Below, in pieces: positions 4,334 through 57,537 of a stretch of 64,000 bases of DNA. The translations under genes were made by a program, and so were the position numbers. The notes under the pieces are model-generated. The model made no database searches. It saw nothing but the letters and a program-made list of their open reading frames with translations, and had not been told where the DNA came from. Where the stretch lies: contig JAJCXP010000366.1 of NCBI GenBank assembly GCA_029263375.1, positions 2,402-66,401 on the forward strand, written 5' to 3'. The DNA is from Acidobacteriota bacterium. Its GTDB lineage: Bacteria > Acidobacteriota > Thermoanaerobaculia > Multivoradales > JAHEKO01. How positions within the stretch are numbered: the first letter of the stretch is position 1; each line of letters starts with the position of its first letter.

Positions 4334-4384
4334 CATGGTGCCCAGGGGCGGATTTGAACCACCGACACCCTGATTTTCAGTCAG
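4334..4384. repeat. attL: 51-bp direct repeat identical to the 3' end of tRNA-Phe (distal island boundary)
   Basis: catggtgcccaggggcggatttgaaccaccgacaccctgattttcagtcag occurs identically at 4334-4384 and 57460-57510. The second copy is the 3' half of an intact tRNA. Confidence 0.8.
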
Positions 4385-4487
4385 TGCATCCAGGTCGCAT
4401 GGAGTCCTATGGAGTTTACAAAAGGCCTGTTTTTCTTAGTTCTTTAGCCAATCGACTCCGACCGAGTCCGCTGGAGTTTGCACCGAG

Positions 4488-4510
4488 TTGATTGCTATAT
4501 GATTGCTAGC
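4488..4510. repeat. arm-type repeat copy 1 (TTGATTGCTATATGATTGCTAGC), immediately upstream of the integrase start
   Basis: Near-identical 23-bp copy at 57392-57414 (one mismatch over 23 bp; 27/30 over a 30-bp alignment including flanks). Contains an internal TGATTGCTA doublet. Both copies lie just inside the att repeats. Confidence 0.5.
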
Positions 4511-4521
4511 CAGGGACCGAG

Positions 4522-5760
4522 ATGCGCAGAAAGATCACCAAGACAGCCGTCGACAACCTCCGATCGGGGTCGCACGACACCTTCCTCTGGGACACGGAGA
4601 TCACTGGCTTCGGCTGCAAGATCACGCCGGCCGGCCGCAAGGTCTACATCCTCCAGTACAGGACCGAAGGCCAGGACTCTCGGAAGGCGCCGAAGCGCGT
4701 CACCCTCGGCAAGCACGGGGACATCACCGCCGACAAGGCTCGCAAGCTGGCCACTCGGGCACTGCTCGAGGTGAAAGAAGGCGGCGATCCCCGTCGGTTC
4801 CGGCAGTCGGAGGCCGATCCAACCATCGCGCTGCTGGCCGACCGCTTCCTCAACGAGTATCTGCCCAACAAGAAGCGCCCTCCCAGGGAACGAACGGTCG
4901 CCTCCTACGAGAGCCTGCTTCGATGCCACATCGTGCCTCGCCTGGGCGACCTGCGGCTCGACGAGCTCACGGTGGCTGACGTCGAATCCCTTCACGTCTC
5001 TCTGCGCGACTCACCGTACGTGGCCAATCGAGCGCTCGTCGTCCTGCAGCAGGCGCTCGATCAGGCAGAGGCCTGGGGTTGGCGCTCCGAGCGCAGCAAC
5101 CCGGCGCGGCATGTGGAGCGCTACCGAGAGGAGCGACGAGGCGCGAAGAAGGAAGTCATGCTATCGCCCGAGCAGATGGCTGCACTCCTTCAGGCTATCG
5201 ATACTGAAGAGGCTGCCGGTGTGAATCCGAGAGCATGCGCCGCGATTCGCGTCGCATTCTGGACGGGTTGGCGTATCGGCGAGGTGCTCCGGCTGGAGTG
5301 GGCCAACCTCGATCTCGAGAAGGGCGTGGCCAAGCTCGTACGGACGAAGACTGCCGACGAGGAGTACCGGCAAGTGCCGGAGGAGGCCATGGCGATCCTC
5401 TCGACGCAGACAAGAGTTGCCGGCTGCCCGTTCGTCTTCCCGAGCCACGACTTCTCGACCCACCTGACAACCGTACGGAAGCCTTGGGTGAAGATCCGGA
5501 CCCAAGCTGGCCTCTCTGATCTCGACGGCTTGGGACCGCTTCGCCTACACGATCTCAGACACAACGTCGTCAGTTGGGATGTGTCTAGAGGTGTTGGTCT
5601 CGAGATCGCCGGCAAGAATGTCGGGCATCGATCTCGGAGCTCCACCGAGACGTACGCTCACTTCGCGCCTGATGCTCTCAAGCGAGCGGCTGACGAGCGA
5701 GCGCAAGCGATGCGGGCAGCATTGGAACAGACCAAACCAGGGTTTGGCTCACTGGGGTAG
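4522..5760 (+). CDS. int: tyrosine site-specific integrase, P4-like (DUF4102 arm-binding N-terminus plus catalytic core)
   Basis: N-terminus DTEITGFGCKITPAGRKVYILQYR is typical of DUF4102. C-terminus HDLRHNVVSW...GHRS..TETYAHF carries the R-H-R-Y catalytic signature. The gene is adjacent to the att repeat. Confidence 0.85.
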   Translation: MRRKITKTAVDNLRSGSHDTFLWDTEITGFGCKITPAGRKVYILQYRTEGQDSRKAPKRVTLGKHGDITADKARKLATRALLEVKEGGDPRRFRQSEADPTIALLADRFLNEYLPNKKRPPRERTVASYESLLRCHIVPRLGDLRLDELTVADVESLHVSLRDSPYVANRALVVLQQALDQAEAWGWRSERSNPARHVERYREERRGAKKEVMLSPEQMAALLQAIDTEEAAGVNPRACAAIRVAFWTGWRIGEVLRLEWANLDLEKGVAKLVRTKTADEEYRQVPEEAMAILSTQTRVAGCPFVFPSHDFSTHLTTVRKPWVKIRTQAGLSDLDGLGPLRLHDLRHNVVSWDVSRGVGLEIAGKNVGHRSRSSTETYAHFAPDALKRAADERAQAMRAALEQTKPGFGSLG

Positions 5761-6044
5761 TCAGTTCGAGGGCCGCTTGGGCGTGGAGCTCCAGAGGCGA
5801 CGGGCTCCTCGGTCACAGGTTCTCGGTCGTGAGGCTCGGGCGTTACGGTGAGGGGGGCCTCGTACGGTTCCCGCCGACCGCCACCTTCTTCTATTTTATA
5901 GCCCGTCCAAGCAGCATGACCTTGTACGCTCGAGTTCCATCGGGCAACGAGCGCCTCCCTGCAGTTCTTGGCACTAGTGCTCTTCCCTTCTCCCTGACTG
6001 TGGTAGCTTGACCCAACAGATCTTCAAACAGGGAGGATTCGTCC

Positions 6045-6779
6045 TTGGCTCTCAATTCGGCGCTCTTAGCCGCGATTGAGTCTTGCCGCAAGTACCCGAC
6101 TATGACTCACCATCATCCTTCAAAGGGCTGGAGTCTAGTCACCGCAGGACTCCTGGTCCTCACTTCGGCCACCTTGATCACATTGGACCCCGGTGAAGCA
6201 GCACCTAGCAGCAACGCACCACCCGCTCACCTGGTGCGAGGTCACGATTCGGTCACCGTCGCTACAGAACGTGCGCGAATCGAAATGTCGGCGTCCTCTA
6301 GCGAGCCTTTCTTGACGCTCATGCAGCATCTTGGCCTCTCCAAGATGGACCCTCTCGTTGTACGACTCTTCCCCAATGGGCAAGGGCAGGCTATTTTTCC
6401 TGCCGGCTACAAGGCCGCTGGTACCTACAGCTTTCGTTTCTCCGACGACTTTCTACTCGCTGTTCTTGGACCAGCTCTCGAACATTCCCTCTTCAACGCG
6501 GACCCTCGCACTTTTTCGTCGGTTATCCCCCTCAGGGGGGCCACCGGCACATCGGACACCGGTAGTACAGCGTTCAGTTTTAGCTTTGCTGCCTACACAT
6601 CTCCGGCAAATGTGCAAGCCCCGTACTCGACCGCTTTCCGGGTCCGAGGCCTAATGACAACCGCTTCAGTCGACCCAGGCGTCGAACGGCTACTGGAGGA
6701 TCTCCGAGTGATGCGGGTGCAGATCAACTACCTTGCGCAGAACGCGAGAGATGGAGCCGCTCGTGGCCTCACTCCCTAG
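6045..6779 (+). CDS. hypothetical secreted protein
   Basis: 244-aa ORF with a hydrophobic N-terminal segment (WSLVTAGLLVLTSATLITL). Ser/Thr/Ala-rich. Overlaps the start of the following large gene, so the true start is uncertain. Confidence 0.35.
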   Translation: MALNSALLAAIESCRKYPTMTHHHPSKGWSLVTAGLLVLTSATLITLDPGEAAPSSNAPPAHLVRGHDSVTVATERARIEMSASSSEPFLTLMQHLGLSKMDPLVVRLFPNGQGQAIFPAGYKAAGTYSFRFSDDFLLAVLGPALEHSLFNADPRTFSSVIPLRGATGTSDTGSTAFSFSFAAYTSPANVQAPYSTAFRVRGLMTTASVDPGVERLLEDLRVMRVQINYLAQNARDGAARGLTP

Positions 6780-9700
6780 GAAGGGTTTCGTCGCAGCCCT
6801 CCTCGGGCTTTGCCTCCCCCTAGCCGCCGCGGAGGCAGGCACATACCTTTGCTCAGTGTTTGACAATGCCTGCACACCCAATGGCGACGAGGCTTCAATA
6901 GTGCATCCTCAGGGCTACAGCGGCTTCGGCAGTTCGCTCGACCTCTCAGTCTGCGTACGTGGTGTGGGACCGCAGGAAGAGGCCGCGGTCGGCCCACTGC
7001 AAAGGGCCATCGATACCTGGGTTCAACTCACGGAAACGCGCGGCAACTATCTTGACGTGGGCGCCAGTGACGTCCCGGCTGGAACGCACGACCTAGAGTC
7101 CGTCTTCCTGCACGAGATTGGGCATTGCCTCGGTGTTGGGCACGCCAATATCGGCACTGACGCGGAGATAAGCGACGGCTGCCCGGCCATCTGTGATGGC
7201 TGCGACGAGGAACAGTACACCGCCTCGTTTTGCGGGAACAATGACGTCTGGGATTTTGACTCCGGACAGCAAGACGGAATCGAGGGGACCTTCGACGATG
7301 ATCGTGGAGATGATGTCAACGTCTTCTGGTTCAACGACAACTTCAATGACCCGTTCTTCGTGATCAACCCCGTTGATGGCCAGACCTATACACGTGACCC
7401 CAGTAACCTACCTAGTTCGCACTCCGCCGCGGCCTGGGGCAGCCTTGCATACTCCCAGTGGCGCGGTCTAGCAGATACAGAGGCAGTAATGGCTGCGAGG
7501 ATAGGGCCGGGTGTGGCGAAGCGCCAATTGTCGGCCGATGAGGTCTCAACGATTCTCTTCGGCCGGACAGGTCTGGACGAATCCGTCGGCACGTCTGACG
7601 ACTATGAAATAGGAATACGCTATTCCTCTGACCCATCTGACTGCGACCTTGAGGTTGAGTTCATCGATGACTCGCTCATCGAAGGGCTTGCTCAATGTTC
7701 TTTCACCGCAACTGAGTTGGCCTCCGACCACTACGCCATAACCTCCAGCAAAATCGAGGTCAACCAGGACATCGACTGGTATACAGGCGAGGGCACTGAT
7801 GGTGATCCCCCGGACACCGCTACCAACCCTGCGTCCGGGGTAACTGACGACTTGGCTGTCCTCAACGGGACCGTCAACCCCAACGGACTCTCGACGGAAG
7901 GCTGGTTCGTCTGGGATGACGACTCCTTTGTCGATGCCTTCTCAACCCCCCGAGTTTCGGTAGGTTCAGGCAGCTCCAGCGTACCAATCGCCTATGGACT
8001 CGCAGCTTTGGACTGCGAGACAACATACTACTTCCAAGCCTGGGGTGAGAACAGCGCGGGCCTTGACTCGGGTACGGTCCGATCCTTCACAACTGGAACC
8101 TGCGGCGGTGGAGGTGGCGACGAAGAGCTCATCACGAACGGCGGCTTCGAACCTGGCAGCGCCGGTTGGGAGCTCTCCGGCGACTTCCAGGCAGACGACC
8201 GCTTTAGCTGTACTCACAGCGGTTCGGGGTATGCGTATCTGGCCCTACCAGACGGAAGCCGGGGCGACAACTTGCACGGCGAGCTGGATCAGGTCGTTTC
8301 GATCCCTGCAGCAGCAGATTCCCCGGAACTCTCCTACTTCTACAGTATCTCCACCGACGACCCGAGCGGGCAGATCGAAGACGCCATGGTCGTGTGGATC
8401 TACGACGAGGCCGGCGACACCGCGCTCGAGGCACTCGCGACATACTCCAACCTAGACGCGCAGAATGGCTGTGGCTCGACGTTCTACGACTCTGCCGGGC
8501 CCTTCGATCTTTCGGACTACATCGGGGAGACAATCCGCGTTCGATTCGAGGCAGCTACCGACTCTCGCAGCGGGACCGGCACGGTTTTTCGTGTGGACGA
8601 CGTCAGCCTCCAAGCGGAGATTCCCCCTGGAAGTGCACCGGACGTGAGCACAGAGTCAGCGGACGAAATCACTAGCCACTCCGCGAACCTCAATCTGCAG
8701 GTGACGGCTAACGGCGCCGCCACGGACGTTTGGTTTGAATGGGACGATGATCCGAATCTAAGCAACCAAACGGATTCCGTCGCGGTCAGCGAGGATGCGG
8801 TGAATCACCCGGTCAGCATCGAGCTGTCGGGGCTCAATTGCGAGGAGACGTACTACTTCGAGGCCTTCGCGTGGAACGTACACGGCGAGGACGACGGTAT
8901 CCAACGGTCGTTCACAACAGGTGCCTGCCCAGGAGGCCCGCCAACGGCGGACACAGACCCGGCGGAGGCGATCACGTCCACTTCGGCCCGGCTTACAGCC
9001 GAGATCCTCCCAAACGGGCTCTCGACTGACGCTTGGTTCGAGTGGGGTGAGACAACCAGCCTAGGCAACTTGACACCTCGGCAGGGCGTCGGCTCCGGGA
9101 CCTCCTGGGTGGACTTCGATGCCGATCTCGCGAGTCTCGACTGCGGGACGACCTACTACTTCGAAGCCCATGCAGAGAACTCTGCCGGCGAGGATGACGG
9201 CGCCACGCACTCGTTCGCGACGCATGACTGCGATCCCGGCAACAGGCCACCCCAGGCGACGGGTGACAGCTACTCAACGCCGGTCGATGCGCCCTTGTCT
9301 GTCGCAGCTCCTGGAGTCCTGGGTAATGACTCCGACCCCGATGGCGACTTCCTTACCGCGGATCTGACAGGAGACGTGCTCCACGGTTCACTGACGCTGC
9401 ATCCGGACGGTTCATTCGATTACTCCCCCGTCGCCGGCTACGAGGGCCCGGACTCGTTCTCCTACGTGGCCAACGACGGCCTCCTCGACTCCAGCCCCGC
9501 CACCGTCAACATCTCGGTCGGCGACGCATCACCAATCCAGTGGCCTGACTTCATAGACCTGAACACTCCGCCCGGGACGGAGTCGGTGCCCACCACTCGC
9601 ATCTACGGGGATTACGAGTTCGGTGATTTCGGCGCTGGCGTGGCCTCGGGCGACTTCAACAATGACGGGTTCATGGACGCCCTGGTGAGCGCCGAGAACG

Positions 9701-11478
9701 AAGAGCCCCTAGGGCGTATCGACGGAGGAGCGGCCTACGTCGTCTGGGGATCCAGCACACTGTCGGAGGTCACAGAACTCACCTCCTCATCGGCAGGAGT
9801 CACCCAGATCTTCGGGCGGACGGACGAGGAACTCGGCTCTTGTGTCGCTGCGGGAGACGTGAACAACGACGGTTTCGATGACCTCATCATCGGAGCCGAG
9901 ACATTCGACGCCGGTACCGACGACAAGGCAGGAAGAGTGCTCATAGTCTACGGCGGGAACTCTCTTCCGGCCATGATCGATATGGAAGCGACATCAGTCG
10001 CGATGACCGAGATCCACGGCCCAGGCCCAACCCACTTCCTCGGCAGGAGTTGCTCCGTGGGCGATGTCAACGGTGACGGCTTCGCAGATGCGGTAGCTGG
10101 CGCCCCAAGCGTAGATATCGGTGGAGACAATGATGTGGGCAAGATCTTCATCGTCTACGGGTCGGCCACTTTGCCCGCGGTAGTCGATCTTGGGAGCGGC
10201 CCGAGCGGCGTTACGGAGATTCGTGGCGCAGGTCACCTAGATTCCATCGGCGACAGCCTGGGTGTCCTCGATCCGAACGCCGATGGTTATGGCGACTTGG
10301 CCTTCGATAGCAGTTTCGCAACTCCGACGAACGTCTTTGTGCTTTGGGGCAGTTCGTCACCACCGAGCTTCATCGACCTAGCGTCCTCGCATGCCGGTAC
10401 CACCAGGATCGAAGAGCCCGACAGCGAGTTGTGGACTGCTTTCGGTGAGAGCCTCGCAGGTGGGGACCTCGACGGCGACGGGGTGCAGGACCTCATCATC
10501 GGGGCTGAGGCGGCTGAATACAACTGCAACGAGGATTGCGGGACAGTGTTTGTTCTATACGGCGACAACACCTTCAGTTCTCATGCCGTTATTGATCTGG
10601 GTGTGCCGCCTGGCACAGAGGCGGTGGCGGTGACGAGGATCCACGGGCTCGCAGATTTGGACTACCTAGGCAATGCCGTGAGTACGGGTGATGTCAACAA
10701 TGACGGATACTCAGACGCGCTCCTCGGAGCCCCTGCCTTTGGAGTGTCAGCGGGTGTCACCTTTGCCATCTTCGGTCGTCCTGAGTTGCGCCAGTTCGTA
10801 GAGGTCCCCCCGGACTACGCCGCGTTCGAGGGCACGCAGATCCTCGGAGTCGACGCCCTAGACGCGATGGGGGACGCTCAGGCGAGTGGAGACATTAACG
10901 GAGACGGTTTTGACGATGCCGTGATCGGCGCAAGCAACGCCGCCCCCGGAGGTGTCACAAACGCCGGTGAGGCTTACATCGTCTATGGCGGTGTCCGATC
11001 TCTCTCACCACCGTTCCGCACATTGACTGTGAACGTCCTTGGCAATGGCGGCGGCACCGTCGTAAGCACGCCTTCAGGAATCACCTGTACCGACTGGTGT
11101 GAGGCCCCTTACCTGGTGGGGTCGCAGCTCGACCTCGATGCAAGCGCTGATCCCGGTTCAGTGTTCGATCGGTGGCTCGGCGGCGGCTGCACGGGTTCTG
11201 CTGCGTGCAGTGTGATCATCGACTCGGACGTATTGATTGGCGCCCTTTTCATTGAGCCTGGCTCGTGTGGCGAAGCGGACACGCTCCACCTCCACGATCT
11301 GGCAATCGAGTCGACTGAAACATTCGAGGCTTGCACTGGGTTGTCTGCCGGCTCGGGGTTCAGCGTCGAGCCCGCGGGCGATGTGACACTTCGCTCGGGC
11401 GGCGGCGTGTCTCTCGAGAACGGCGTCATCGTCGAAGGCATGTTGGCGATCGAGATTGATCCCTCGCTACTGCCTTGA
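6733..11478 (+). CDS. giant secreted zinc metalloprotease (metzincin-type HExxHxxGxxH) with FN3/PKD-like and FG-GAP/VCBS repeats
   Basis: Signal peptide FVAALLGLCLPLAAAEA. HEIGHCLGVGHA zinc-binding motif. Repeated TYYF(Q/E)A..EN.AG modules. At least six GD(V/L/I)N(N/G)DG(F/Y).D..(I/L)GA repeats typical of FG-GAP. 1581 aa. Confidence 0.75.
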   Translation: MRRTREMEPLVASLPRKGFVAALLGLCLPLAAAEAGTYLCSVFDNACTPNGDEASIVHPQGYSGFGSSLDLSVCVRGVGPQEEAAVGPLQRAIDTWVQLTETRGNYLDVGASDVPAGTHDLESVFLHEIGHCLGVGHANIGTDAEISDGCPAICDGCDEEQYTASFCGNNDVWDFDSGQQDGIEGTFDDDRGDDVNVFWFNDNFNDPFFVINPVDGQTYTRDPSNLPSSHSAAAWGSLAYSQWRGLADTEAVMAARIGPGVAKRQLSADEVSTILFGRTGLDESVGTSDDYEIGIRYSSDPSDCDLEVEFIDDSLIEGLAQCSFTATELASDHYAITSSKIEVNQDIDWYTGEGTDGDPPDTATNPASGVTDDLAVLNGTVNPNGLSTEGWFVWDDDSFVDAFSTPRVSVGSGSSSVPIAYGLAALDCETTYYFQAWGENSAGLDSGTVRSFTTGTCGGGGGDEELITNGGFEPGSAGWELSGDFQADDRFSCTHSGSGYAYLALPDGSRGDNLHGELDQVVSIPAAADSPELSYFYSISTDDPSGQIEDAMVVWIYDEAGDTALEALATYSNLDAQNGCGSTFYDSAGPFDLSDYIGETIRVRFEAATDSRSGTGTVFRVDDVSLQAEIPPGSAPDVSTESADEITSHSANLNLQVTANGAATDVWFEWDDDPNLSNQTDSVAVSEDAVNHPVSIELSGLNCEETYYFEAFAWNVHGEDDGIQRSFTTGACPGGPPTADTDPAEAITSTSARLTAEILPNGLSTDAWFEWGETTSLGNLTPRQGVGSGTSWVDFDADLASLDCGTTYYFEAHAENSAGEDDGATHSFATHDCDPGNRPPQATGDSYSTPVDAPLSVAAPGVLGNDSDPDGDFLTADLTGDVLHGSLTLHPDGSFDYSPVAGYEGPDSFSYVANDGLLDSSPATVNISVGDASPIQWPDFIDLNTPPGTESVPTTRIYGDYEFGDFGAGVASGDFNNDGFMDALVSAENEEPLGRIDGGAAYVVWGSSTLSEVTELTSSSAGVTQIFGRTDEELGSCVAAGDVNNDGFDDLIIGAETFDAGTDDKAGRVLIVYGGNSLPAMIDMEATSVAMTEIHGPGPTHFLGRSCSVGDVNGDGFADAVAGAPSVDIGGDNDVGKIFIVYGSATLPAVVDLGSGPSGVTEIRGAGHLDSIGDSLGVLDPNADGYGDLAFDSSFATPTNVFVLWGSSSPPSFIDLASSHAGTTRIEEPDSELWTAFGESLAGGDLDGDGVQDLIIGAEAAEYNCNEDCGTVFVLYGDNTFSSHAVIDLGVPPGTEAVAVTRIHGLADLDYLGNAVSTGDVNNDGYSDALLGAPAFGVSAGVTFAIFGRPELRQFVEVPPDYAAFEGTQILGVDALDAMGDAQASGDINGDGFDDAVIGASNAAPGGVTNAGEAYIVYGGVRSLSPPFRTLTVNVLGNGGGTVVSTPSGITCTDWCEAPYLVGSQLDLDASADPGSVFDRWLGGGCTGSAACSVIIDSDVLIGALFIEPGSCGEADTLHLHDLAIESTETFEACTGLSAGSGFSVEPAGDVTLRSGGGVSLENGVIVEGMLAIEIDPSLLP

Positions 11479-11776
11479 AGCGGAGTCAATCCCGGTATTC
11501 TTGGGGTGGCCCACAAGATCGGGGTTGGTTAAGAACGCCGAGAATTCCAGTCTCCCCTGGCATCAGATCTGGAGCACGTCACCAGTGCGGCCGAGACCTA
11601 GGTGCACTCCAGCGGTACGGGCGGGCCTGTCTCTCCGCCCAGAGCCAGACAGTCTGTTGCTCGACGGCAGCTCGACAATGGGCAACGGTGCCTAGTACAC
11701 TCGCGCCACTTACTTAGCTGTCACTGAGATCTCTTAGGTTCCGCAGCCTGGTTCTGAAGGGCTGGGGGGGACAAGA

Positions 11777-12688
11777 TTGAAAGCCTTCAAGGGCGCGATT
11801 CTCGCATCGCTGAGTTTCACTATTGCGTTTTTCCTTTCCCTGACCGGCTGTATGGCGGGTCAAGCCGCTGGGGTCGAGGCGGATCGAGCCACAACGGCCT
11901 TGGTGCAGGCTGAAGAGCGAGCTCCGAGGGAGCACTGCGACCCGCAGCTGCTGGAAGAGACTAGAGGCGGCGCAAACGGGTACGGCGGATTCGGCGATGC
12001 CTGCCAAGGGTACTTCCGCGAGTTGTCTACAACGGAACCGCTCACCCCTATCTCGTTGCGGTCTCTGTACATCGTCCCCGAATCCGGTGAACCGCTAGAG
12101 GCCATCGCAAGGCGAGAGGGGCAGCGGGTCGTCTGGGTGAACGTCCCTGTCGCTGATGCTCGTCCGGTGATGATTCTGATTCAAGCTGGGAGCCACTCGG
12201 CGAACCGCGCCGGCTTCAGGAAGACCTGGGCAATGACTGCGTGCCGCGACGGGGCTTCCCCCGACCTGCTCTTCAACCGCGGAGAACTGCAGAACCTTAT
12301 GAGAAGGAGGCCACGAGGAACGGTCCACCTTGGGGCTCTTGCGACGACGCCCTCGTTCTGCGAGCCCGTTGAACCTGGCACTCGCCTCTATTTGCCAGTT
12401 GGTTTTCCGGAAAGCAAGGATGCTCATCCCGGCAGCAGCTTTGAAGCGGTTGTTGACTTCCACCCAAAGCCCCTATCCCGGCCCACCTTCCGCCTGCTGA
12501 GGGATAACGGAGATGCCCTAAATGGCTGTACGGATGACCTCAAGCTTGAAGAGAGCCTCGAGCTGCGAATCCGCTGCCCGCTCCCACGTTGCAGGAGCGT
12601 CTATTCTCTGGAAGTCGTCGTTGACCCCGCAACTGGCTCGGACATGGTATTCGAGCTCCTTCTCGGGCGAGAGAACTGCGGACAATGA
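11777..12688 (+). CDS. putative lipoprotein
   Basis: N-terminus MKAFKGAILASLSFTIAFFLSLTGC carries a lipobox-like L-T-G-C. Stop overlaps the start of the next gene (ATGA). Confidence 0.5.
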   Translation: MKAFKGAILASLSFTIAFFLSLTGCMAGQAAGVEADRATTALVQAEERAPREHCDPQLLEETRGGANGYGGFGDACQGYFRELSTTEPLTPISLRSLYIVPESGEPLEAIARREGQRVVWVNVPVADARPVMILIQAGSHSANRAGFRKTWAMTACRDGASPDLLFNRGELQNLMRRRPRGTVHLGALATTPSFCEPVEPGTRLYLPVGFPESKDAHPGSSFEAVVDFHPKPLSRPTFRLLRDNGDALNGCTDDLKLEESLELRIRCPLPRCRSVYSLEVVVDPATGSDMVFELLLGRENCGQ

Positions 12689-14481
12689 GTGGGCTCAAGC
12701 TCCTTCTAGTCATCGTCTTGCTCGTGTTTGCCACCACCGGGCTTCTGCTAGACCGCATTCGACCGAGAGCGGAGGCAATTCTGCTCGTCCCGAGTACTGC
12801 CGGCGGCACGGAAGTGGTCTTTGATATCGCACGGGAGGACATCCTTGAGTCGCCGACGGCCTTGGCGATTGGAACCGCCAATACCTCGGACATTCGTTGC
12901 ATTGACGGTGACCCTGAATGCAACCACGTTTGGCTACCGCCGCAGGGATCCCCTGCAACCACTCTCCGAGCCTTCCGGATCGTCGGGCCCGACCGCTTGG
13001 CACTCCGCCTGCCAGTCAGCGACCTTCGATACACGTTCCAAGAACCCGCTCGCCTGCTCATCGGACTCTCCAACGGGCGGGATGAACAGATCCAACTCTC
13101 ACCACACGGTAGCATCTCAGTTGCTCTATCACGTCAAGACCATTCGGTGCTCTTGCTGCGCGGTCACGTCACCGTTGGCGGGCCCTGCACTACTCACGCC
13201 CGCGTGACATTTCTTCACTTCCCGACGGTAATCCGCGATCTATCCAAGTGCCAATCTGGCTGGGCGCTCTCGAGCGAGCGACCGGCCACAGTCGAGTTGA
13301 CCACGGCTGACATGCAAATCCGAGCTTCGGCCGCGGACCTAACCATCGAAGGAGAGTCAATCATGCCATCGATGCTTGAGCGCCTAAGCGAGAGAGCTCC
13401 TCCATGGATAAACCTACTCGCCATCTTGGCTGGGTTGGTGACTGTCATTGGTGCTTTCCGTAACGCTGTCCGAACCATCGTGATCGCGATTGGTCTCGCC
13501 TCCCTACTTGGGTCAGCAGTAGAGGCGACGGGCATCGAGGACGGGAGCAAGCGCAGAATCAACGTTGAAAAATTCATCGTCGGCATAGGGGTAGACGGGT
13601 CAGTACGCGGTAGCGGGATTCTTATCGGTCAGGACCACATACTGACCGCCTACCATGTCCTTCATGAGAGCAACCCGACGGAAAACAGCCCCGTCATCTG
13701 CGTTCTATCCGCGCCAGTAATAGAGGGTCGTCTTACCCCATCTAACTGCGAGGACAAGGGTGCGACCGGCGAAATCGTGTATCGAAGTGAGGTCTACGAC
13801 TTGGCGGTCGTCAGAGCTTCTATCGCGTTCCCCGACGTTTCCGGCTTCAGATTCCTGGGCAGCAGCAGCCGCTGCGGTCCTGGCTGCCGAGTGCTGCTAT
13901 CCACGTACGACGATCCGTCGAAGCGGCTCTATAGCGACCCAGGGACCATCGCCGTCTCTTCCGGAGACAGGCTCACAATCGACTGGCCAAGTCTGACTGA
14001 GAGCCCGGGGTGGTCGGGCGGCGCGATTCTTGACAAGAAGCTACGACTGGTTGGCCTATACACCGAGGACGACTCGAGCGGACAGCAGAGCTTTGGAGTC
14101 CCATTTGACACGGTGCGGGCCATCCTCCCAGACGACATTCCAATGGAACACAAAGTCAAGCGGAAGCTGGATCGGTGGCTCGTCGCGGGCATCTTGGCAA
14201 CCATCGGCTCAGGCTACGTGCTAAACGAACGGAACGACGATCTCGATCGAGCAGTAAGCGGCATCGAGGTCATGCCGGCCGTTACGCGAGGTCAGGAGAT
14301 CATCCGGAATCGCGCGATCGCTGAGGTGCAGTCACTCGAATCTGAACGGGACATCTGGGCAGCTGTGACAGGCGTGGTGGTGACGGCATCGGCCACGTAC
14401 ATAACCACCAAATACCTGTGGCCTCGTTTTCGCACCTGGAAGAACAACTGCAAGAGAAGGTGGGTCAAGTGCAACTCATGA
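12685..14481 (+). CDS. membrane-anchored trypsin-like (S1 family) serine peptidase
   Basis: N-terminal TM LLLVIVLLVFATTGLLL. His-box GSGILIGQDHILTAYHVL. Ser-box SPGWSGGAIL (GDSGG-like). Additional TM segments near the C-terminus. Confidence 0.55.
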   Translation: MSGLKLLLVIVLLVFATTGLLLDRIRPRAEAILLVPSTAGGTEVVFDIAREDILESPTALAIGTANTSDIRCIDGDPECNHVWLPPQGSPATTLRAFRIVGPDRLALRLPVSDLRYTFQEPARLLIGLSNGRDEQIQLSPHGSISVALSRQDHSVLLLRGHVTVGGPCTTHARVTFLHFPTVIRDLSKCQSGWALSSERPATVELTTADMQIRASAADLTIEGESIMPSMLERLSERAPPWINLLAILAGLVTVIGAFRNAVRTIVIAIGLASLLGSAVEATGIEDGSKRRINVEKFIVGIGVDGSVRGSGILIGQDHILTAYHVLHESNPTENSPVICVLSAPVIEGRLTPSNCEDKGATGEIVYRSEVYDLAVVRASIAFPDVSGFRFLGSSSRCGPGCRVLLSTYDDPSKRLYSDPGTIAVSSGDRLTIDWPSLTESPGWSGGAILDKKLRLVGLYTEDDSSGQQSFGVPFDTVRAILPDDIPMEHKVKRKLDRWLVAGILATIGSGYVLNERNDDLDRAVSGIEVMPAVTRGQEIIRNRAIAEVQSLESERDIWAAVTGVVVTASATYITTKYLWPRFRTWKNNCKRRWVKCNS

Positions 14482-15320: not shown

Positions 15321-15415
15321 CTGCCGACACTCACCTTTTCTTGATGACCGATGACGTGCTCCCCCCAACTCGGCCCGCTAGACTTTGAGCGATCGGGCCG
15401 CATGGGAGGAGCAAG

Positions 15416-18131: not shown

Positions 18132-18156
18132 CTCACGTCTCCTTTTTCTAAGCTGT

Positions 18157-23528: not shown

Positions 23529-23587
23529 GTTGGATTGAGTCTCCCCTGTCGGTACTCTCTTCCGCACGACGCGAAGGGAGGTTCAGC

Positions 23588-30006: not shown

Positions 30007-30035
30007 ACGTCCATCCACCTGAAAGGAGGTACCCC

Positions 30036-50697: not shown

Positions 50698-52733
50698 GTT
50701 CCTGGCTCCCTATTCTCCTCGCGGAACTCGCGGTAGGCCTGGGCGATGCGCGGCAGGTCGTCGTCGACGATCTTCTGCTTCCGACGAAGCTCCCGCTCCA
50801 CGAAGTTCCCATTGACCCGAATCCGCTCGATGACCTTGACCTCCTCGATCCGCTCCTCGCCATCAGGGCTGCGCTTGTACAGCGTGTTGCCGCGCCGATC
50901 GAAGCCGACTCTCTCGGCAACTGCCATGAAGACCGGGTAGTCGCTAGCCGCACCCAGATCCTCGGCCTGGATTTCCTCCTGGGTCTTCTTCTTGAGGAAG
51001 AGCAAGCTCGTCAGAATGTTGACGTTGGCCTCGACGATAAACACTTCGACGGGTAGGTCAACGCTTGCGAGCACCCAGCAGTGCCGCAGGATCCACCAGC
51101 GAATGTACTCATCACCTGGGTTGCCGAGAATGCCGTCAGGCAGCACAATGCCCGTGCGCCCACCCGGCCGCAGCCAGTCGATACAGCGCTCGATAAATAG
51201 AACCTCGGGCGAGACGCTGCCGTGGTGCTTGCCGCTGTTGACGAACCCACCGCCTTCAACAGCCGCCCACCGGTTGGCCAACTCGAAGTGCTGCAGGATG
51301 TTGGGGTCTGTGACCGGGATCTCCGACCCGAAGGGCGGGTTTGTCATCACGACATCCATGGTGCCGAGACCGGCCTGCTCTCCCGCGGCTTCGACGCCCC
51401 CCAAGTGCCCGGAGGGAAATTCCAGCGAGTTCATATTATAGACGTGTCCCTGAGCGTTCGAAGCCATCACCACGTTCATCTGGGCTGCGCGAACCAGGAA
51501 AGGATCGAAGTCGGCTCCAAACAGCTTGGAGTTGGCCCATGCTGCAAGGCGGTCGCGAATTGAGAGGAACTCGTCCGTTGACTCTGCACCAGGCTGGACA
51601 GCCGCTTCCTGATGAAAGCGGCGATCCATGTGGCTGAGCACCGATACGAGGAAGCCACCCGTACCGCAAGCGGGATCGAGGACGCGTTCGCTCTCCTGCG
51701 GATCCAGCATATCGACCATCAGATCGACAGCTCCGCGGGGTGTGAAGTACTGCCCCCTGTCGCCTCGGAGGTTGTTCTTGACAATTTCTTGATACGCCGC
51801 CCCCTTGGCGTCGATGGCCGTGCGGCCGAAGTCGTACTTCGCAAGCTCCGCGACCATGAAGGCAAGGGCTCGGTCCGAGAGGGTGATCTCCTCGTTCCCG
51901 CGAAAGATGGTGTCGTAGTGTCGCTTGACTTCCTCGAAGAGCGGCTCGATCCTCGCTCGGATGGCCTGACGCCCCTCCGGATCGAACTGCTCAGTGGCGC
52001 CCGCCCAGAAGCGAGGCTCATCGTCCCTGCTGCGCTTCTCGTCGTGCATCTTCGTAAAGATCAGGTACAGAAACTGCCAGAACGCCGCGTCCTTTGGCAT
52101 GCCCTCGTTGCCGTGGATGAAGTTGTGGCAGCGCCGGAACGCGGTTCGTAGCATCTCCGGATCGGCCCTTCGCAAGCGAGCGTGCGAGACAACATCGCGT
52201 GTGCCGATGGACTCGTCGGCCATCGGCCAATCCCCAATAGGCTTGAACTTCACATCGAAGCGGCTGACCTCTTTGTCAAAGAAGAAGAAGTCGAGGCCGT
52301 TGGTCCACAGCCCGTAGCGACAGGCGGGCGCGTCGGTCATCGCGGCGTGGAGCAGGCTGAATTCCATCTTGGCCTGGTCGTGGTCTCGCATCTTGTAGGC
52401 GCCCTTCTTGGTGCGAGGTGGTTCCTTCTGGCAAACCACTAGCCGCCGGACGTTCTCGACCTCGTGGGGCTGGTCCGACTCGAAGATCGCCAGGTCGATC
52501 TTTCTCATTCGCCCGTCCACTCGCATGCGGAAGTCGGGTGCCATGTCCTCGAGCGAGATGCCGTACTCGTGGAAGAACGCACGCGCGATGCGCTGGCGCA
52601 CCTTTTCCTTTAGGGTGTCCTTGACGGGTTTGCCGGTGATGTAGTCGACGACCTGTCCCTCCTCGATAGACATGGCGTCGGTGGACTCGCCGTTTTCGCT
52701 GGTGTCGCCAGCGCGGTCCTGTGGGTCAGTCAT
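50694..52733 (-). CDS. N6-adenine DNA methyltransferase, HsdM-like, with N-terminal HSDR_N-like (restriction-endonuclease-fold) extension
   Basis: Motif I LDPACGTGGFL. Motif IV NPPFG. N-terminal KIDLAIFE...RRLVVCQKE resembles a PD-(D/E)xK domain. ATG at 52733 is preceded by AAGGAGG and overlaps the end of the upstream HTH gene. Confidence 0.8.
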   Translation of the reverse strand: MTDPQDRAGDTSENGESTDAMSIEEGQVVDYITGKPVKDTLKEKVRQRIARAFFHEYGISLEDMAPDFRMRVDGRMRKIDLAIFESDQPHEVENVRRLVVCQKEPPRTKKGAYKMRDHDQAKMEFSLLHAAMTDAPACRYGLWTNGLDFFFFDKEVSRFDVKFKPIGDWPMADESIGTRDVVSHARLRRADPEMLRTAFRRCHNFIHGNEGMPKDAAFWQFLYLIFTKMHDEKRSRDDEPRFWAGATEQFDPEGRQAIRARIEPLFEEVKRHYDTIFRGNEEITLSDRALAFMVAELAKYDFGRTAIDAKGAAYQEIVKNNLRGDRGQYFTPRGAVDLMVDMLDPQESERVLDPACGTGGFLVSVLSHMDRRFHQEAAVQPGAESTDEFLSIRDRLAAWANSKLFGADFDPFLVRAAQMNVVMASNAQGHVYNMNSLEFPSGHLGGVEAAGEQAGLGTMDVVMTNPPFGSEIPVTDPNILQHFELANRWAAVEGGGFVNSGKHHGSVSPEVLFIERCIDWLRPGGRTGIVLPDGILGNPGDEYIRWWILRHCWVLASVDLPVEVFIVEANVNILTSLLFLKKKTQEEIQAEDLGAASDYPVFMAVAERVGFDRRGNTLYKRSPDGEERIEEVKVIERIRVNGNFVERELRRKQKIVDDDLPRIAQAYREFREENREPGT

Positions 52734-52965
52734 CCAGCCCCTCCTTCGGTGTCGCGTCGCTGCTCGACTCGGCGCCGCCTTCGCGAACCCACGCGTCGAC
52801 GTCATCCTTCTTGAACTTCCAGAAGCGCCCAACCTTGTAACCGGGCATTCCCTTCCGGGTAACCCAAACGTACACAGTGTCCTTGCTCACGCCGAGGTAC
52901 TCGGCGATCTGGTCTACGGACATCCACCGGTCGTCCATCGGTCGTGCGCTCCCGTGCTGAGGCAT
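52726..52965 (-). CDS. HTH_17 (excisionase/MerR-like) DNA-binding protein. Either Xis of the island or a controller of the downstream operon
   Basis: MSVDQIAEYLGVSKDTVYVWVTRKGMPGYKVGRFWKFKKDDVDAW is an excisionase-family HTH. Translationally coupled to the MTase. Confidence 0.7.
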   Translation of the reverse strand: MPQHGSARPMDDRWMSVDQIAEYLGVSKDTVYVWVTRKGMPGYKVGRFWKFKKDDVDAWVREGGAESSSDATPKEGLDD

Positions 52966-53290: not shown

Positions 53291-53950
53291 ATGCCACGAG
53301 GCGGCCCAGTCATTTCGAACTGGCACACCCTGGTCGACGGGTTCAACACGTCGAGCCTCGATTTCTACAACGCCGTCGAGGAAGCGGTGAAGGCCCGGGA
53401 AGTGCCTGAAGCCGCTTTCTCCCTCGTCGAGTTCAAGGAGGGCGGTTTCGCTTCCGCCAGGCGCGAGTATCTACGGGTCGAGCGCGGCAACGTCGCCTTC
53501 GACATAGGCGCCGCTCCCTATGGCAATGGCTTCTTCTTCTCCTGGTGGCTCACGCGGCTGGGTCCGAAGCACCCGTTCCTCTATGTGCTTGCGTTCCTCG
53601 TCGCCGTTTTCTTTCTTCCCCCGATTCTCGCGTACCCCTTTCGAGATTCTTGCGGGTACTTCTTCATCGTGCCGGTGATGTTCGTTGGCGTCATTGCCGG
53701 CCTGGCTTTCCTCGCCCGCAAGGAGATCTTCGGCCCCGAGGAGCACATCCTCGCCATCCCGATCCTGGGTTGGATCTACGAGAAGATCTTCAACCCGAAC
53801 ACCTACTACGCGCTCGACACGGCGCTGATGTTCCAGGAGTCCATCCGGCGGGCCGTCAACGACGTGATGGATGGCCTGATGTCGGGTCAAGGCCTCAGAG
53901 CTCTGACTGAAGATCAGAAGAAGCCCACCATTCGTGATCTTTCGCGGTAG
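53291..53950 (+). CDS. hypothetical integral membrane protein
   Basis: 219 aa with about four hydrophobic helices. Immediately upstream of the large T4CP-like gene. Confidence 0.45.
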   Translation: MPRGGPVISNWHTLVDGFNTSSLDFYNAVEEAVKAREVPEAAFSLVEFKEGGFASARREYLRVERGNVAFDIGAAPYGNGFFFSWWLTRLGPKHPFLYVLAFLVAVFFLPPILAYPFRDSCGYFFIVPVMFVGVIAGLAFLARKEIFGPEEHILAIPILGWIYEKIFNPNTYYALDTALMFQESIRRAVNDVMDGLMSGQGLRALTEDQKKPTIRDLSR

Positions 53951-53955
53951 GGACC

Positions 53956-56900
53956 GTGCTTGTTGACACCCGCACCGTCGAGCTGACCCGCGGCTTCTAC
54001 GAGTGGGAGCTGCGAGGTCGGGGTTGGGCGCGCTACCCGCGACACGTGGCGCTCGAGCCGGCGTTCCAGCCCTTCCTTGGTCACTCGCCGCCGACTACGC
54101 AGCGAGTCGATGACGCGAGGCGAGAGACCTGGCTCTCGTCGCTTGTGAGCCGGTTGCCAGGTCGACAGCAGACCGTCTCCTCTGAGCTGCATGAGATCAA
54201 GGCGCCTGCTCCAGAGCCGCGACCGCCTGAACTCGCAGAGCTGTCCGAGTTTGTGATCGCCCTCCCGAAGGACGCTCGTGTGCCCAGGGCTGCCGTCCTC
54301 GCATGGCTTCGTGCTCTGTCCACCATCTCGGGGCCTGTCTCCTTCGAGCTACTCGGAGGCACAGAGCGGGTCGAGGTGCGACTCGCTGTTGGCAATCCCG
54401 ATGTCAGTCAGGTCATTGGGCAGCTTCAAGCGGTACTACCCTCGGCCATCGTCCTCGAGGCTCCCGAGCGGCTCGAAGAACGATGGTTCGAGGTCATTGG
54501 CGACCACTTCGCGGCGATCGAGTTTGGCCTCGCGAGCGAGTTCATGATCCCCTTGGCGCGTTTTGGATCCGGGGATGAGCCGCTACTGCCATCGATCGCG
54601 GCGCTCGCCAACGTCGGCGCTGACGAGCTCGGCCTCGTCCAGGTGCTTTTCGAGGAGACTCGCGAGTCCTGGGAGCGCAGCCTCCTGCGGGCCGTGGTCA
54701 CGCCAAGCGGCAAGCCCTTCTTCGCCGATGCACCCGAGATCACCGCGGCGGCGAGGGACAAGGTGGCCACTCCGCTGTTCGCAGTTGCGGTGCGGGTCGC
54801 GGCAGTAGCCCAGACCACAGATAGAACCTGGGAGGTCCTGCAGCAGCTGGCCGGGGGGCTCTCACACTTCGGCAATCCCCAGGCGAACGAGCTGATGCCG
54901 TTGCCGACCGGCGATCTCGAATTGCTGGAGAGCGATCTAATCGACCGAACGACGCATCGCTCCGGAATGCTGCTCTCAACCGAGGAACTCATCTCTCTTG
55001 TCCAGTTCCCCGGAACAGGCGTTCAGGTGCCTGAGCTCTGGCGAGCGAGCGAGAAGAGCAAGGCGGCCCCCGCCGAGGTGATCGGCCAGGGCTGCTTTCT
55101 CGGGAAGAACGAGCACCAAAGTCAGGCTTCCGACGTCCGGCTCCCCGTCGATGCCAAGACGAAGCACGTGCATGTGGTCGGCGGCTCGGGAACAGGCAAA
55201 TCGACGCTTCTTGTGCGCATGATCCTCGAGGACATCGAGGCGGGTCACGGCGTCGGCGTCCTCGATCCGCACGGCGATCTGATCGACGAAGTAGCGTCCC
55301 GAATACCCGAGGACCGCTTCACCGATGTTGTCTTCTTCGATCCGAGCGAAGAGGAGACCGCGATTGGCTGGAACATCCTGGGCGCTCAGTCGGAGACCGA
55401 GAAGGATCTCCTAGCATCGGATCTGGTGGGAGTCTTCCGACGGCTCTCGACCTCCTGGGGCGACCAGATGACGGCGGTGCTCGCGAACGCCATTCTCGTC
55501 TTCTTGGAATCGGACCGGGGCGGGATCTCCTGGACCTCAGGCGCTTCCTCGTTGATGCCGAGTTCCGAAAGGAGATCCTGCAGACCGTCGACGACGAATA
55601 CGTTGGATCGTTCTGGGAAACGGAGTTTCCGCTTCTCATCGGTCGCAAGCCCCAGGCCCCAATCCTGACGCGGCTCGACATGTTCCTCCGCTCCAAGCTG
55701 ATCCGGCGGGTCGTCACCGTACGGAATCCGAAGCTCGACTTCGCAAGAGTGACCGACAGCGGGCACATCTTCCTCGGCAAGCTGGCGACGGGCGCCATCG
55801 GCGAGGAGAATGCGGCGTTGCTGGGGTCCCTTCTCGTCTCGAAGTTTCACCAGGTCACACTTGCGCGCGAAGCGCAGACCGTCGAGCAGCGGCGGCCGTT
55901 CTTCCTCTACATCGACGAGTTCCATCACGTGGCGACGCCCTCGATGGCATCGCTGTTCTCAGGCATGCGGAAGTACCGACTCGGTCTGACGGTGGCACAC
56001 CAGGACCTCTACCAGCTTCACAAGTCGGTCCCGGAGGTCGAGCGTTCGCTGTTGGCGAACGCGTACACGCGGATCTGTTTCCGCGTCGGAGAGGAGGACG
56101 CACGAGGTCTGGCGAAGGGCTTCAGCTTCTTCGAGGCCGAGGACTTGATGGGTCTTGGGCTCGGAGAAGCTATCTGCCGGGTCGGCGGGCGCGACGCCGA
56201 CTTCAATCTCCGGACGGAGAAGCTGCCGCCGGTTGATCGTGAAGAGGCGCAGGCCCGGGTAGCGATTCTCCGAAGCCTCTCAGGACAGAGGTGGCGAGGA
56301 AGCGACGATGGAGACTCTGAACCTCCGCCGCGCACGAAGAAAGCGCCGAGGAAGACGGCCGAGACTGCTAGTCGCGAGCCCAAGGAGGAGGCCACTTCCC
56401 TGCCGCCTGACAAGCAAGAGTCGGTCGACAAGCCTCAGGTGGAACCGGCTCCGCGGCCGCAATTGGACAAGGAGGTGCTCGACTACCTCGAGCTTGTCGC
56501 AACGGCGCCTTTCCTTTCCGTCCGCGAACGCAACGACCACCTCAGCCTGAGCGCGTGGAAGGGTGACCAGGTCAAGAAGACTCTTCTCGACGGGGATCTG
56601 GTGCGCGAGGTGGCGGTCAATCCAGGCGGCCGAGGAGCGCGGTTCAAGCTTCTCGAGTTCACAGCGGCTGGGCGAGGAGCCCTTGCGGACTATGGGATCA
56701 AATCTCCTTCCGGGCACGGGCGGGGTGGAATCGCCCATCAGTGGTGGGTGAACACCATCGCCGCATGGCTCCAGGAGCAAGGCTTCTCCCCCGTGATCGA
56801 GGATGAGTCCTCGGGCGCCAGAGTAGACCTTTCCTTCTCGGTCAAGCGCAAGAGGGTAGCCGTCGAGGTCGAGATGGCCGAAGGCCACGCCCTTGAGAAC

Positions 56901-57395
56901 GTCCGGAAGGACCTGGAAGCGGGCTACGACCTTGTCGTCAGTCTTCTGGATGACTCCACTTCCTTAGGGCGCATCGAGAAGGCTCTTGCCTCTGAGTCGG
57001 GAGACCTACCTTTGAGCGTCCGGGTGGGGAGGGTTCAGGATTACACGGAGCTCCTCGCCCCGCCCCTCATCCCCCACCCTCCTCCCTTACGAGCGCCGAA
57101 CCAAAACAAAGAACCAAGAGCGCAACGCCAGCGACGGCCGCGGACGGCACACGGCGAATCGGCCGGCAAGCGGCAGGCGGATGTCCCCCCAGAGCCAGGC
57201 GCCCTGTCGACGCCCTGGGCCGCGGAGTACCTGGGGCTGAGCCCGGCGACCTTGGAGGCGCTGCGTTCGCGTGGCGGCGGCCCCGCTTTTGCCAAGCTCG
57301 GCAGGCGCGTCGTCTATCGCCGGGAAGACCTCGACGCATGGCTCGCTGAGCGCCGCCGCAAGTCAACGAGTGACGATGGGTCGCCTTCGACTTGA
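53956..57395 (+). pseudogene. large (~1146 codon) T4CP-like FtsK/TraD-family ATPase with N-terminal extension, frameshifted near 55527. C-terminal tail carries an AlpA-like HTH
   Basis: Paralog of 22218-23528 (HVHVVGGSGTGKSTLL, LDPHGDL, FFLYIDEFHHV, LTVAHQDLYQL). Reading continues in another frame after ESDRGG (-1 relative shift). C-terminus LSPATLEALRSRGGGPAFAKLGRRVVYRREDLDAWL is an AlpA/Xis-like HTH. Confidence 0.5.
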
Positions 57396-57414
57396 TTGCT
57401 ATGTGATTGCTAGC
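57392..57414. repeat. arm-type repeat copy 2 (TTGATTGCTATGTGATTGCTAGC)
   Basis: See copy 1 at 4488-4510. Located 46 bp inside attR. Confidence 0.5.
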
Positions 57415-57459
57415 AAGAAAACGGCTCGCCAATCGGCGAGCCCTAAGTTATTGATTCTT

Positions 57460-57510
57460 CATGGTGCCCAGGGGCGGATTTGAACCACCGACACCCTGAT
57501 TTTCAGTCAG
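57460..57510. repeat. attR: 51-bp direct repeat, overlapping the 3' end of tRNA-Phe
   Basis: Identical to 4334-4384. Confidence 0.8.
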
Positions 57511-57537
57511 GTGCTCTACCAACTGAGCTACCTGGGC
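57462..57537 (-). tRNA. tRNA-Phe: tRNA-Phe (anticodon GAA)
   Basis: The reverse complement reads GCCCAGGTAGCTCAGTTGGTAGAGCACCTGACTGAAAATCAGGGTGTCGGTGGTTCAAATCCGCCCCTGGGCACCA. It forms a 7-bp acceptor stem and a T-arm GGTGG/CCGCC, carries anticodon GAA, and has an encoded CCA. Confidence 0.9.

Follow-up and report, generated by a model that had tools for sequence, protein, structure and literature searches.

A stretch of 64,000 nucleotides (the window; positions 2,402 to 66,401 of contig JAJCXP010000366.1, assembly GCA_029263375.1) carries two copies of a 51-bp sequence some 53 kb apart, one of which is the 3' part of a tRNA-Phe gene. The host is an uncultured, soil-type Acidobacteriota metagenome-assembled genome (MAG) that is Thermoanaerobaculia-like, and the locus raises the question of what kind of element the two copies enclose, how it came to be there, and whether it is equipped to move. 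The evidence supports an integrated genomic island of 53,126 bp, inserted into tRNA-Phe via a tyrosine recombinase. We consider it probable that this island resembles an integrative and mobilizable element (IME), which integrates through a DUF4102 integrase, arm-type doublets, and integration host factor (IHF), is excised under the direction of an RdfS-type domain, and carries the MADS anti-phage system and other genes as cargo. The protein–DNA contacts, excision, replication, and mobilization described herein are predictions from sequence and are worded as such.

A genomic island in tRNA-Phe

The only tRNA gene that ARAGORN calls in the window is tRNA-Phe(GAA) (57462-57537, minus strand), which is 76 nt long and has an encoded CCA. 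This gene is the integration target and has been rebuilt by the element. Direct reading and a repeat search located the exact direct repeat at 4334-4384, the attL core, and at 57460-57510, the attR core and 3' part of the functional tRNA gene. Each copy consists of nt 28-76 of tRNA-Phe (49 nt, including the CCA) and two downstream nucleotides, and begins at the second base of the anticodon stem. The initial annotation, which was made from the sequence without database searches, had recognized an element integrated into the 3' part of tRNA-Phe, along with the correct length of its perfect repeat; its division into 48 tRNA and 3 flanking nucleotides is corrected here to 49 and 2. The repeat search returned no other long exact repeat in the window, and simple arithmetic gives a chance expectation of ∼1e-21 for a pair of 51-mers in 64 kb. 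The island thus has direct repeats at both ends, one of which is the 3' part of an intact tRNA gene. The genes of the window were located on one NCBI contig (67 kb) and on Logan contigs of the source sample, SRR15505514.

The integrase and the attachment-site arms

Domain searches with Pfam, NCBIfam, and PHROGs were carried out on the ORFs of at least 90 aa that were judged to be likely genes. Just inside the left repeat, they identify a tyrosine integrase of 412 aa (int; 4522-5760, plus strand), in line with the P4-type integrase named initially. Its Arm-DNA-bind_3 (DUF4102; PF13356, 4.8e-13), SAM-like (PF14659, 8.2e-9), and catalytic (PF00589, 6.5e-20) domains each score above the gathering cut-off and form the domain set of the heterobivalent P4-type/DUF4102 integrases. 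The gene is full length, and the catalytic set R251, K276, H343, R346, H369, and Y378 is complete.

A 23-mer, TTGATTGCTATRTGATTGCTAGC, occurs exactly twice in the window (4488-4510 and 57392-57414, both on the plus strand), where none is expected based on 100 shuffles; the paired repeats reported initially just inside each end are therefore exact. The 23-mer is a doublet of TGATTGCTA with an 11-bp period, one doublet stands in each arm, and the exact 9-mer TGATTGCTA is confined to these two sites in the window. The P' doublet, TTGATTGCTATATGATTGCTAGC (4488-4510, plus strand), begins 104 nt away from the core, with 11 nt between its end and the int ATG at 4522. The P doublet, TTGATTGCTATGTGATTGCTAGC (57392-57414, plus strand), starts 68 nt before the core and overlaps the stop codon of the ORF at 55680-57395. 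Doublets distinct from the core are thus found in both attP arms, at about -68 and +104.

The spacing of the doublets was compared across related loci, which are designated by L numbers. Ahead of int, 23 of 30 related integrase loci have a period-11 TGATT[GA]C[TC] doublet. The distance from the doublet to the tRNA T-arm fragment is constant in these relatives, at 130-135 nt, and that from the doublet to the int ATG ranges from 30 to 114 nt. Measured across elements, the P' doublet starts 101-107 nt after the core and the P-arm doublet 66-73 nt before it, with L050, where a single copy stands 57 nt before the core, as the outlier. The doublet variant, which is TGATTGCTA, GTGATTGCC, or GTGATTACC, differs between elements and is equal in both arms in five of the six elements seen with both ends, the window included. 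L030 retains doublets though no HTH_17 gene was found there. In metagenomes, the exact 23-mer was matched by a tRNA-Lys P arm (L069) and by loci whose integrases are only 35% identical (L071 and L072), which ties the motif to the integrase's arm-binding domain, not to the target.

These observations bear on the function of the doublets, for which the initial annotation had offered either an integrase arm site or an operator. The fixed distance to the core, the variable distance to the int start, the agreement between the arms, and the occurrence at a locus where no Xis-like gene was found are the behavior of an arm-type site, and we favor the doublets as putative integrase arm-type sites. That they instead serve the RdfS-like excisionase domain, or are the operator of int, appears rather improbable to us. 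Winged-helix recombination directionality factors (RDFs) typically bind direct repeats spaced one helical turn apart (PMC7498355), and ICEMlSymR7A has an RdfS site directly upstream of intS as well as autoregulation of PintS by IntS (PMC11963761); the left doublet, too, lies close to the start of int. However, RDF sites are usually on one arm and the doublet is in both, L030 and L031 both have doublets and neither yielded an HTH_17 gene, and the integrase has a dedicated Arm-DNA-bind_3 domain. Of the two initial readings, the arm site is thus retained based on the constant core distance, and the operator is less favored given the range of distances to the int start. The doublet may nevertheless have a dual role as arm site and in int autoregulation.

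Two side observations concern the metagenome loci. In L071 and L072, the TTGATTGCTATATGATTGCTAGC site is identical, a third unit lies upstream, and a different tRNA fragment is adjacent. In L072, an RdfS-like HTH_17 gene lies downstream of int.

Between the P-arm doublet and the core are two further features. A terminator-like GC-rich hairpin with a T-run (57423-57442, minus strand) lies directly downstream of tRNA-Phe and is kept in L026 and L050. It is followed by a perfect IHF consensus, AATCAATAACTTA (57444-57456, minus strand), which ends 3 nt before the core. The consensus has two matches in 64 kb versus 0.37 expected, and the same motif was found in L026, L050, L059, and L069. On the other side, the P' arm extends for 137 bp from the core to int (4385-4521, plus strand), is kept in relatives as judged by alignment, and contains short repeats in addition to the doublet. 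These GGAGT(T/C)(T/C)-type repeats form two clusters (4399-4419 and 4466-4487) with ∼10-11-bp spacing and are clearer in relatives, where CTGGAGTTTG and GAGTTTGC each occur twice. They are candidate binding sites for the RDF or for a second protein.

Related elements share their ends and differ in cargo

A scan of 185,579 species genomes, one per species, returned 39 loci. Acidobacteriota MAGs account for nearly all of them, and as many as seven integrase loci (paralogs) occur in a single genome. The closest integrases, P0005 (on 15 contigs) and P0004, are 87-88% identical to that of the island and are accompanied by the same tRNA-Phe fragment, a conserved P' arm, and a nearly invariant doublet. 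The genes behind them are unrelated, with a mer operon in one and PNP_UDP in the other. The attachment-site architecture is therefore conserved between relatives while the cargo turns over.

Five complete small elements of 4-10 kb lie within the fetched flanks (L018, L026, L030, L031, and L050) and have tRNA-derived direct repeats of 46-50 bp. Their targets are tRNA-Ala (L018 and L026), tRNA-Lys (L030), and tRNA-Thr (L031); L050 is at a tRNA-like core where ARAGORN called no tRNA gene. In all five, as well as in the window and in L017, int is distal to the tRNA gene and on the opposite strand.

Larger parts of the island recur elsewhere. L019, with an integrase 65% identical to that of the island, has the same gene order of a small conserved ORF (21815-22141 in the window, minus strand, 67% identical), the soluble 436-aa type IV coupling protein (T4CP)-like ATPase T4CP436 (22218-23528, plus strand, 83%), a Replic_Relax protein (73.5%), and a RadC-like protein (58%). 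L027 has the counterpart of a membrane protein gene (g53291, 51%) and an intact homolog of the large fusion gene described below (47-50%). L017, located at tRNA-Phe, has the C-terminal part of that gene (65%) and a truncated int, and in L060, a short T4CP-like gene accompanies RadC and the fusion gene.

Several loci are of interest on their own. One Ca. Multivoradales MAG contains seven integrase paralogs, two of which are 14 kb apart (L023 and L032, CBDCXF010000002.1). L027 has a tandem junction at 9700-10010, in which the right end of one element with its P doublet GTGATTACC, a shared tRNA-like core, and the P' arm with GTGATTGCC and int of a second element follow one another; the doublet variant thus differs across the junction. 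At 5350-5590 of L016, an 88%-identical integrase is accompanied by only ∼23 nt of tRNA-Phe identity, in the region of the anticodon stem-loop, and not by 51; these features point to a secondary site or to an attL with a deletion, and hint at the anticodon stem-loop as the essential core. In metagenomes of the Joint Genome Institute (JGI), L070 and L073 are orphan left ends, with the tRNA-Phe core and a P' arm bearing the exact doublet and no int downstream. In L070, a P-arm-like hairpin precedes the core and the P arm is slightly different, which has the appearance of an attP-type or tandem junction.

A T4CP-like protein with an RdfS-type domain

At the right end of the island, two ORFs on the plus strand (53956-55668, 570 aa, and 55680-57395, 571 aa) constitute one gene (53956-57395) that a frameshift of 1 nt, near 55525 and within a G-rich run, divides in two. 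We read them as one gene because T4CP436 and PHROG 5156 align collinearly across both frames, because L027 holds an intact ORF of 1142 aa, and because GGCGGGA-TCTCC stands where homologs encode GG-T-L. The gene is also intact in L059. The split gene would encode an N-terminal domain, a T4CP-family ATPase, a winged helix, a restriction-endonuclease-like domain, and an RdfS-type (HTH_17) domain, and the downstream ORF of 571 aa retains the winged-helix, nuclease-like, and RdfS-like part in full. Searched against solved structures with hmmsearch, the family profile matched TrwB (E = 1.2e-6), DotL, and RdfS (8dgl; E = 6.8e-13).

An AlphaFold model of the last 317 residues (predicted local distance difference test score, 80.6) resolves into three parts. 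The first is a winged helix. The second is an alpha-beta-beta-beta-alpha-beta domain with invariant H99, E120, D129, E142, N153, and K156, the Foldseek neighbors of which are nucleases (Bax1, Can2, and the R2 restriction-like endonuclease). The third superposes on RdfS (8dgl) with 47-48% identity and a root-mean-square deviation of 0.6-1.2 Å. Based on this model, the 'Xis-like HTH' of the initial annotation is an RDF domain of RdfS type, in fusion with a protein that is T4CP-like and nuclease-like; the HTH_17 domain is present as claimed, yet it is the C-terminal domain of a large frameshifted protein and not a small gene. Profile comparison found no similarity between this C-terminal module and the Replic_Relax protein of the window, and a relaxase-like reading of the nuclease domain would draw on its fold and motif.

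In the window, L017, L026, and L027, the fusion gene stops at the P arm; in L059, it stops ∼140 bp before the tRNA-Lys gene. In the 4-kb element L026, a protein of 213 aa is homologous to the C-terminal ∼270 residues of the fusion, HTH_17 included, and this C-terminal-type protein and one cargo gene are all that L026 contains besides int. A literature search found no description of a T4CP-HTH_17 fusion, though a prior description is possible. The recurrent fusion of a T4CP ATPase, a nuclease-like domain, and an RdfS domain at the end of the element is the sole feature that goes beyond textbook expectation. We tentatively raise the idea, which we would not at present call likely, that the fusion is an all-in-one transfer protein, in which the T4CP ATPase, the winged helix with a MOBC-relaxase-like nuclease, and RdfS would join pore coupling, nicking, and excision. 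Together with the distal integrase and the fixed doublets, it would then define an undescribed minimal mobilizable lineage across many Acidobacteriota tRNA genes.

Element class and proposed mechanism

The Replic_Relax protein (PF13814, 3.3e-22; 25992-26930, plus strand) is a candidate MOBC-type relaxase of restriction-endonuclease fold, as judged by sequence. PF13814 is the Pfam model for the MOBC relaxase class (PMC5357655, Table 1), and the relaxases of this class have a restriction-endonuclease fold (PMC3424549). In the likely ORFs searched, no VirB4/TraU-type ATPase, mating-pore, or other type IV secretion system (T4SS) component was found. The island therefore has its own integration and excision module and candidates for relaxase and T4CP, all recognized by sequence or fold homology, without a mating pore. 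Since VirB4 and mating-pore genes are lacking, the island is IME-like and not an integrative and conjugative element (ICE), and of the 'ICE/IME' of the initial annotation, the second half alone is supported.

Our current hypothesis for the life cycle is as follows. The DUF4102 integrase would recombine an attP of ∼260 bp with the segment of tRNA-Phe that runs from the anticodon stem to the 3' end. The order of this attP would be P doublet, terminator, IHF site, 51-bp core, and P' arm with the GAGT-type repeats and the P' doublet. On insertion, the element-borne tRNA copy would rebuild tRNA-Phe, which would then be followed by the terminator hairpin that the element supplies. The N-terminal domain of the integrase is predicted to bind the arm doublets, the units of which are one helical turn apart, while the catalytic domain holds the core, and an IHF-type bend beside the core in the P arm would join arm and core in an intasome in the style of lambda, P4, and ICEMlSymR7A. 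Following the precedent of ICEMlSymR7A, the RdfS-type domain encoded at the element end probably directs excision. The excised circle could be maintained or replicated via the primase module, and transfer could proceed through a foreign mating pore with the MOBC-type relaxase candidate and the island's own T4CP-like ATPases.

A number of observations weigh against an IME-like element of this description. The frameshift in the fusion gene is present both in the NCBI MAG and in an independent Logan assembly of the same sample; together with an inserted IS3 element, it indicates that this copy of the island may be partly disabled. The relaxase and T4CP assignments are weak domain-level homologies, far below the NCBIfam equivalog cut-offs, and plasmids with T4CP436 homologs are mostly typed as non-mobilizable. 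No origin of transfer (oriT) was recognized in the element, no sigma-70-like promoter was found for int in a promoter scan that was blank at both element ends, and L018 is without a P-arm doublet. The genomes and contigs examined showed neither an empty attB nor an excised circle or attP junction. It should be noted that no genome in the collections is close enough to display an empty tRNA-Phe site: the best flank homolog is 68% identical, the nearest homologs of the flanking PD40 gene are 60-68% identical, and the contigs concerned (L002-L004) are without tRNA-Phe and without island genes. A pattern for the tRNA-Phe junction of P arm, core, and P' arm gave no matches in the JGI metagenomes, for which an exact-match pattern may have been too strict. 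At the 51-bp repeat, the source sample's Logan contigs are broken off, as k = 31 predicts, with L001 beginning at 4355 and L058 ending at 57489; they therefore cannot reveal circles.

The alternative with the most in its favor, though still an unlikely one in our estimation, is that the island is a fossil that was integrated once by the same mechanism and can no longer excise or move. Both the frameshift that splits the fusion gene in the two assemblies and the IS3 insertion would be expected of such a remnant, and decay is common among elements of this kind, as the orphan P' arms without int (L070 and L073) and the truncated int of L017 illustrate. However, both 51-bp repeats are still perfect, both doublets have a one-base difference only, int is full length with all of its catalytic residues, and the 571-aa ORF still encodes in full the part of the fusion to which L026 is reduced besides int and a cargo gene. 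Repeats without a mismatch, together with an int and a C-terminal RDF part that are both intact, speak for an element that is recent or still competent. A self-transmissible ICE whose own mating apparatus has escaped recognition is very improbable. The island does have two T4CP-like ATPases and a relaxase candidate, ∼10 ORFs have no family assignment, and the conjugation systems of Acidobacteriota are poorly known; yet a VirB4/TraU-type ATPase is missing, all ORFs >550 aa are assigned to other functions, hydrophobic segments occur in only 3 of the 15 proteins tested, and the related 4-10 kb elements with the same ends cannot encode a pore. The combination of a P4-type integrase, a primase, and an excisionase-like domain resembles that of P4-like satellites, but a prophage or phage satellite is the most remote of these alternatives, given that Pfam and PHROGs reveal no capsid, portal, tail, or true terminase domains, that the only 'terminase' matches are weak P-loop matches of the T4CP-like proteins, and that IMG/VR contains no relative of the integrase with more than 35% partial identity. 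The IME-like element thus remains the reading that we prefer.

Comparison with characterized systems

For the recombination module, the closest characterized system is ICEMlSymR7A of Mesorhizobium, which likewise targets tRNA-Phe with a tyrosine integrase (PMC11963761). There, too, attP has multiple sites, with arm-type repeats on both sides of the core, and a winged-helix RdfS acts as the RDF, to which the C-terminal domain of the island protein is 47-48% identical. Its integrase IntS is P4-like and its identity block is 17 bp. This short block at the 3' end contrasts with the island's 51 bp from the anticodon stem, and the arm motif is TGKTGGTATC in five copies versus TGATTGCTA in two plus two. 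The island further differs in that its int is at the tRNA-distal end, in that its RDF is a fused domain instead of a small protein, and in its host, which belongs to the Acidobacteriota and not to the Alphaproteobacteria. In ICEMlSymR7A, RdfS binds attP beside the arm site upstream of intS, and rdfS is genetically linked to the transfer genes, as a gene of its own that opens a traF-rlxS operon with a T4SS (PMC11963761), whereas the island is without traF and without a T4SS.

Satellite phage P4 and the islands with P4-type/DUF4102 integrases share with the present island the order of Arm-DNA-bind_3, SAM-like, and catalytic domains, the tRNA target, and the heterobivalent use of arm and core sites. 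In P4, Int and Vis autoregulate int, which is paralleled by the doublet beside the int start of the island. However, the island integrase is only ∼25-34% identical to any phage-borne integrase (GenBank phages), the island is without phage or satellite genes, and its crossover region includes the anticodon stem-loop. IMEs that have their own relaxase and coupling protein resemble the island in combining int and an RDF with, here, a MOBC-class relaxase candidate and a T4CP-like ATPase, and in having no mating pore. The MOBC plasmid CloDF13, with MobB and MobC, is comparable to the set of relaxase candidate and T4CP-like proteins. Relative to these, the relaxase and T4CP homology of the island is weak, and the island has two T4CP-like paralogs, of which one is joined to nuclease-like and RDF domains. 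Actinomycete integrative and conjugative elements of the pSAM2/SLP1 type are small to medium in size, are inserted in tRNA genes with an identity block that starts at the anticodon loop and reaches the 3' end, carry int and xis in terminal positions as well as a replication module, and are without a T4SS. They are transferred by an FtsK-like TraB and have different Rep proteins, whereas the ATPases of the island are TrwB/VirD4-like and no Spd or Nudix genes were seen in it.

Taken together, the island is of an ordinary and known kind, a tRNA-integrated, IME-like genomic island with a P4-type integrase. Its interest lies in the host, as mobile elements are poorly charted in the Acidobacteriota, a dominant and mostly uncultured soil phylum. 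With ∼40 relatives, the island defines one integration system of this phylum by target, arm motif and geometry, IHF site, terminator, and RdfS-type RDF. In various tRNAs, the target of the system extends from the anticodon stem to the 3' end, and its cargo includes defense (MADS), mercury resistance, and other genes. Islands in MAGs can be delimited with this definition, which also allows integration tools for Acidobacteriota to be built.

Backbone and cargo genes

The domain searches bear out the initial list of Replic_Relax, primase, T4CP-like ATPases, RadC, and HTH_17. In addition to the genes described above, the backbone contains a RadC-like JAB protein (28945-29658, plus strand), a DnaG-type primase with a CHC2 zinc finger (29721-31052, plus strand), and HTH regulators. 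A membrane protein with hydrophobic segments (53291-53950, plus strand) is conserved upstream of the T4CP fusion gene and is the one with the 51%-identical counterpart in L027. The iterons of the initial annotation exist as 10/30-bp tandem repeats at 31598-31694 that are in frame in the 5' part of an ORF with an HTH-like center (31088-31765, minus strand) and encode three 10-aa peptide repeats. They may be an iteron-like origin or a mere peptide repeat.

The defense operon, correctly taken as cargo in the initial annotation, is a complete MADS anti-phage system (34208-52965, minus strand) with mad1, mad2, mad3, mad4, two copies of mad5, mad6, mad7, and mad8 in one operon. The PADLOC models for mad2 to mad8 match consecutive genes (mad7, 4.6e-165; mad6, 3.7e-130; mad2, 3.3e-99). 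The mad1 candidate is a 79-aa HTH_17 ORF upstream of mad2 (52726-52965), called as 70 aa in L058, and is the second HTH_17 gene of the island. Mad5 is the specificity subunit, and its duplication is accompanied by repeat units at 45577-45758 and 47233-47442. Between the two mad5 copies lies a 53-aa fragment that is 54% identical to the N terminus of mad6, with a 182-nt repeat at 78%; this has the appearance of a duplicated mad5/mad6 junction and is possibly a specificity-switching arrangement.

The remaining cargo includes a secreted-protein operon (6045-15320, plus strand) for a 1581-aa FG-GAP/cadherin-like protein, a trypsin-like protease, and an fn3 protein, as well as an ATP-binding cassette (ABC) transporter (17019-19729, minus strand) with an NMT1-type binding protein, a permease, and an ATPase. 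A family 2 (GT2) glycosyltransferase and a Sel1-repeat protein are also encoded. The IS3-family transposase (rve/rve_3) inserted in the island was identified by domain search at 15385-16567 (plus strand). An arrangement of two elements in tandem was considered and set aside, as the island has no internal att remnant, second integrase, or further doublet.

Flanking DNA

The ∼1 kb to the left of attL (3300-4333) contains no convincing gene, and a SIR2_2-domain protein lies further left, within 1250-2386; the left flank may be accessory or defense DNA and not core genome. Outside the left repeat, at a distance of 67 bp (4247-4267), stands a perfect 11-bp tandem doublet, TGTTTGCTCAC TGTTTGCTCAA, the style of which is like that of the arm doublet and of the GTTTGC repeats in the P' arms of relatives. 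As the mark of an older neighboring element it was rejected when alignment with the true P arm gave no register, though it may be the relic of an earlier element.

To the right of the island, the Logan contig L005 ends at 57510 and not at 57481, the position predicted for a repeat break with k = 31. This implies a further branch in the 5' half of the tRNA, probably from a second tRNA-Phe locus or organism in the sample. The right flank (59156-63737) contains a Phd/YoeB toxin-antitoxin pair, based on the gene calls of L005, and an MscS-FHA channel protein. A Ser/Thr kinase-like ORF in the same flank resembles the kinase domains of mad6.

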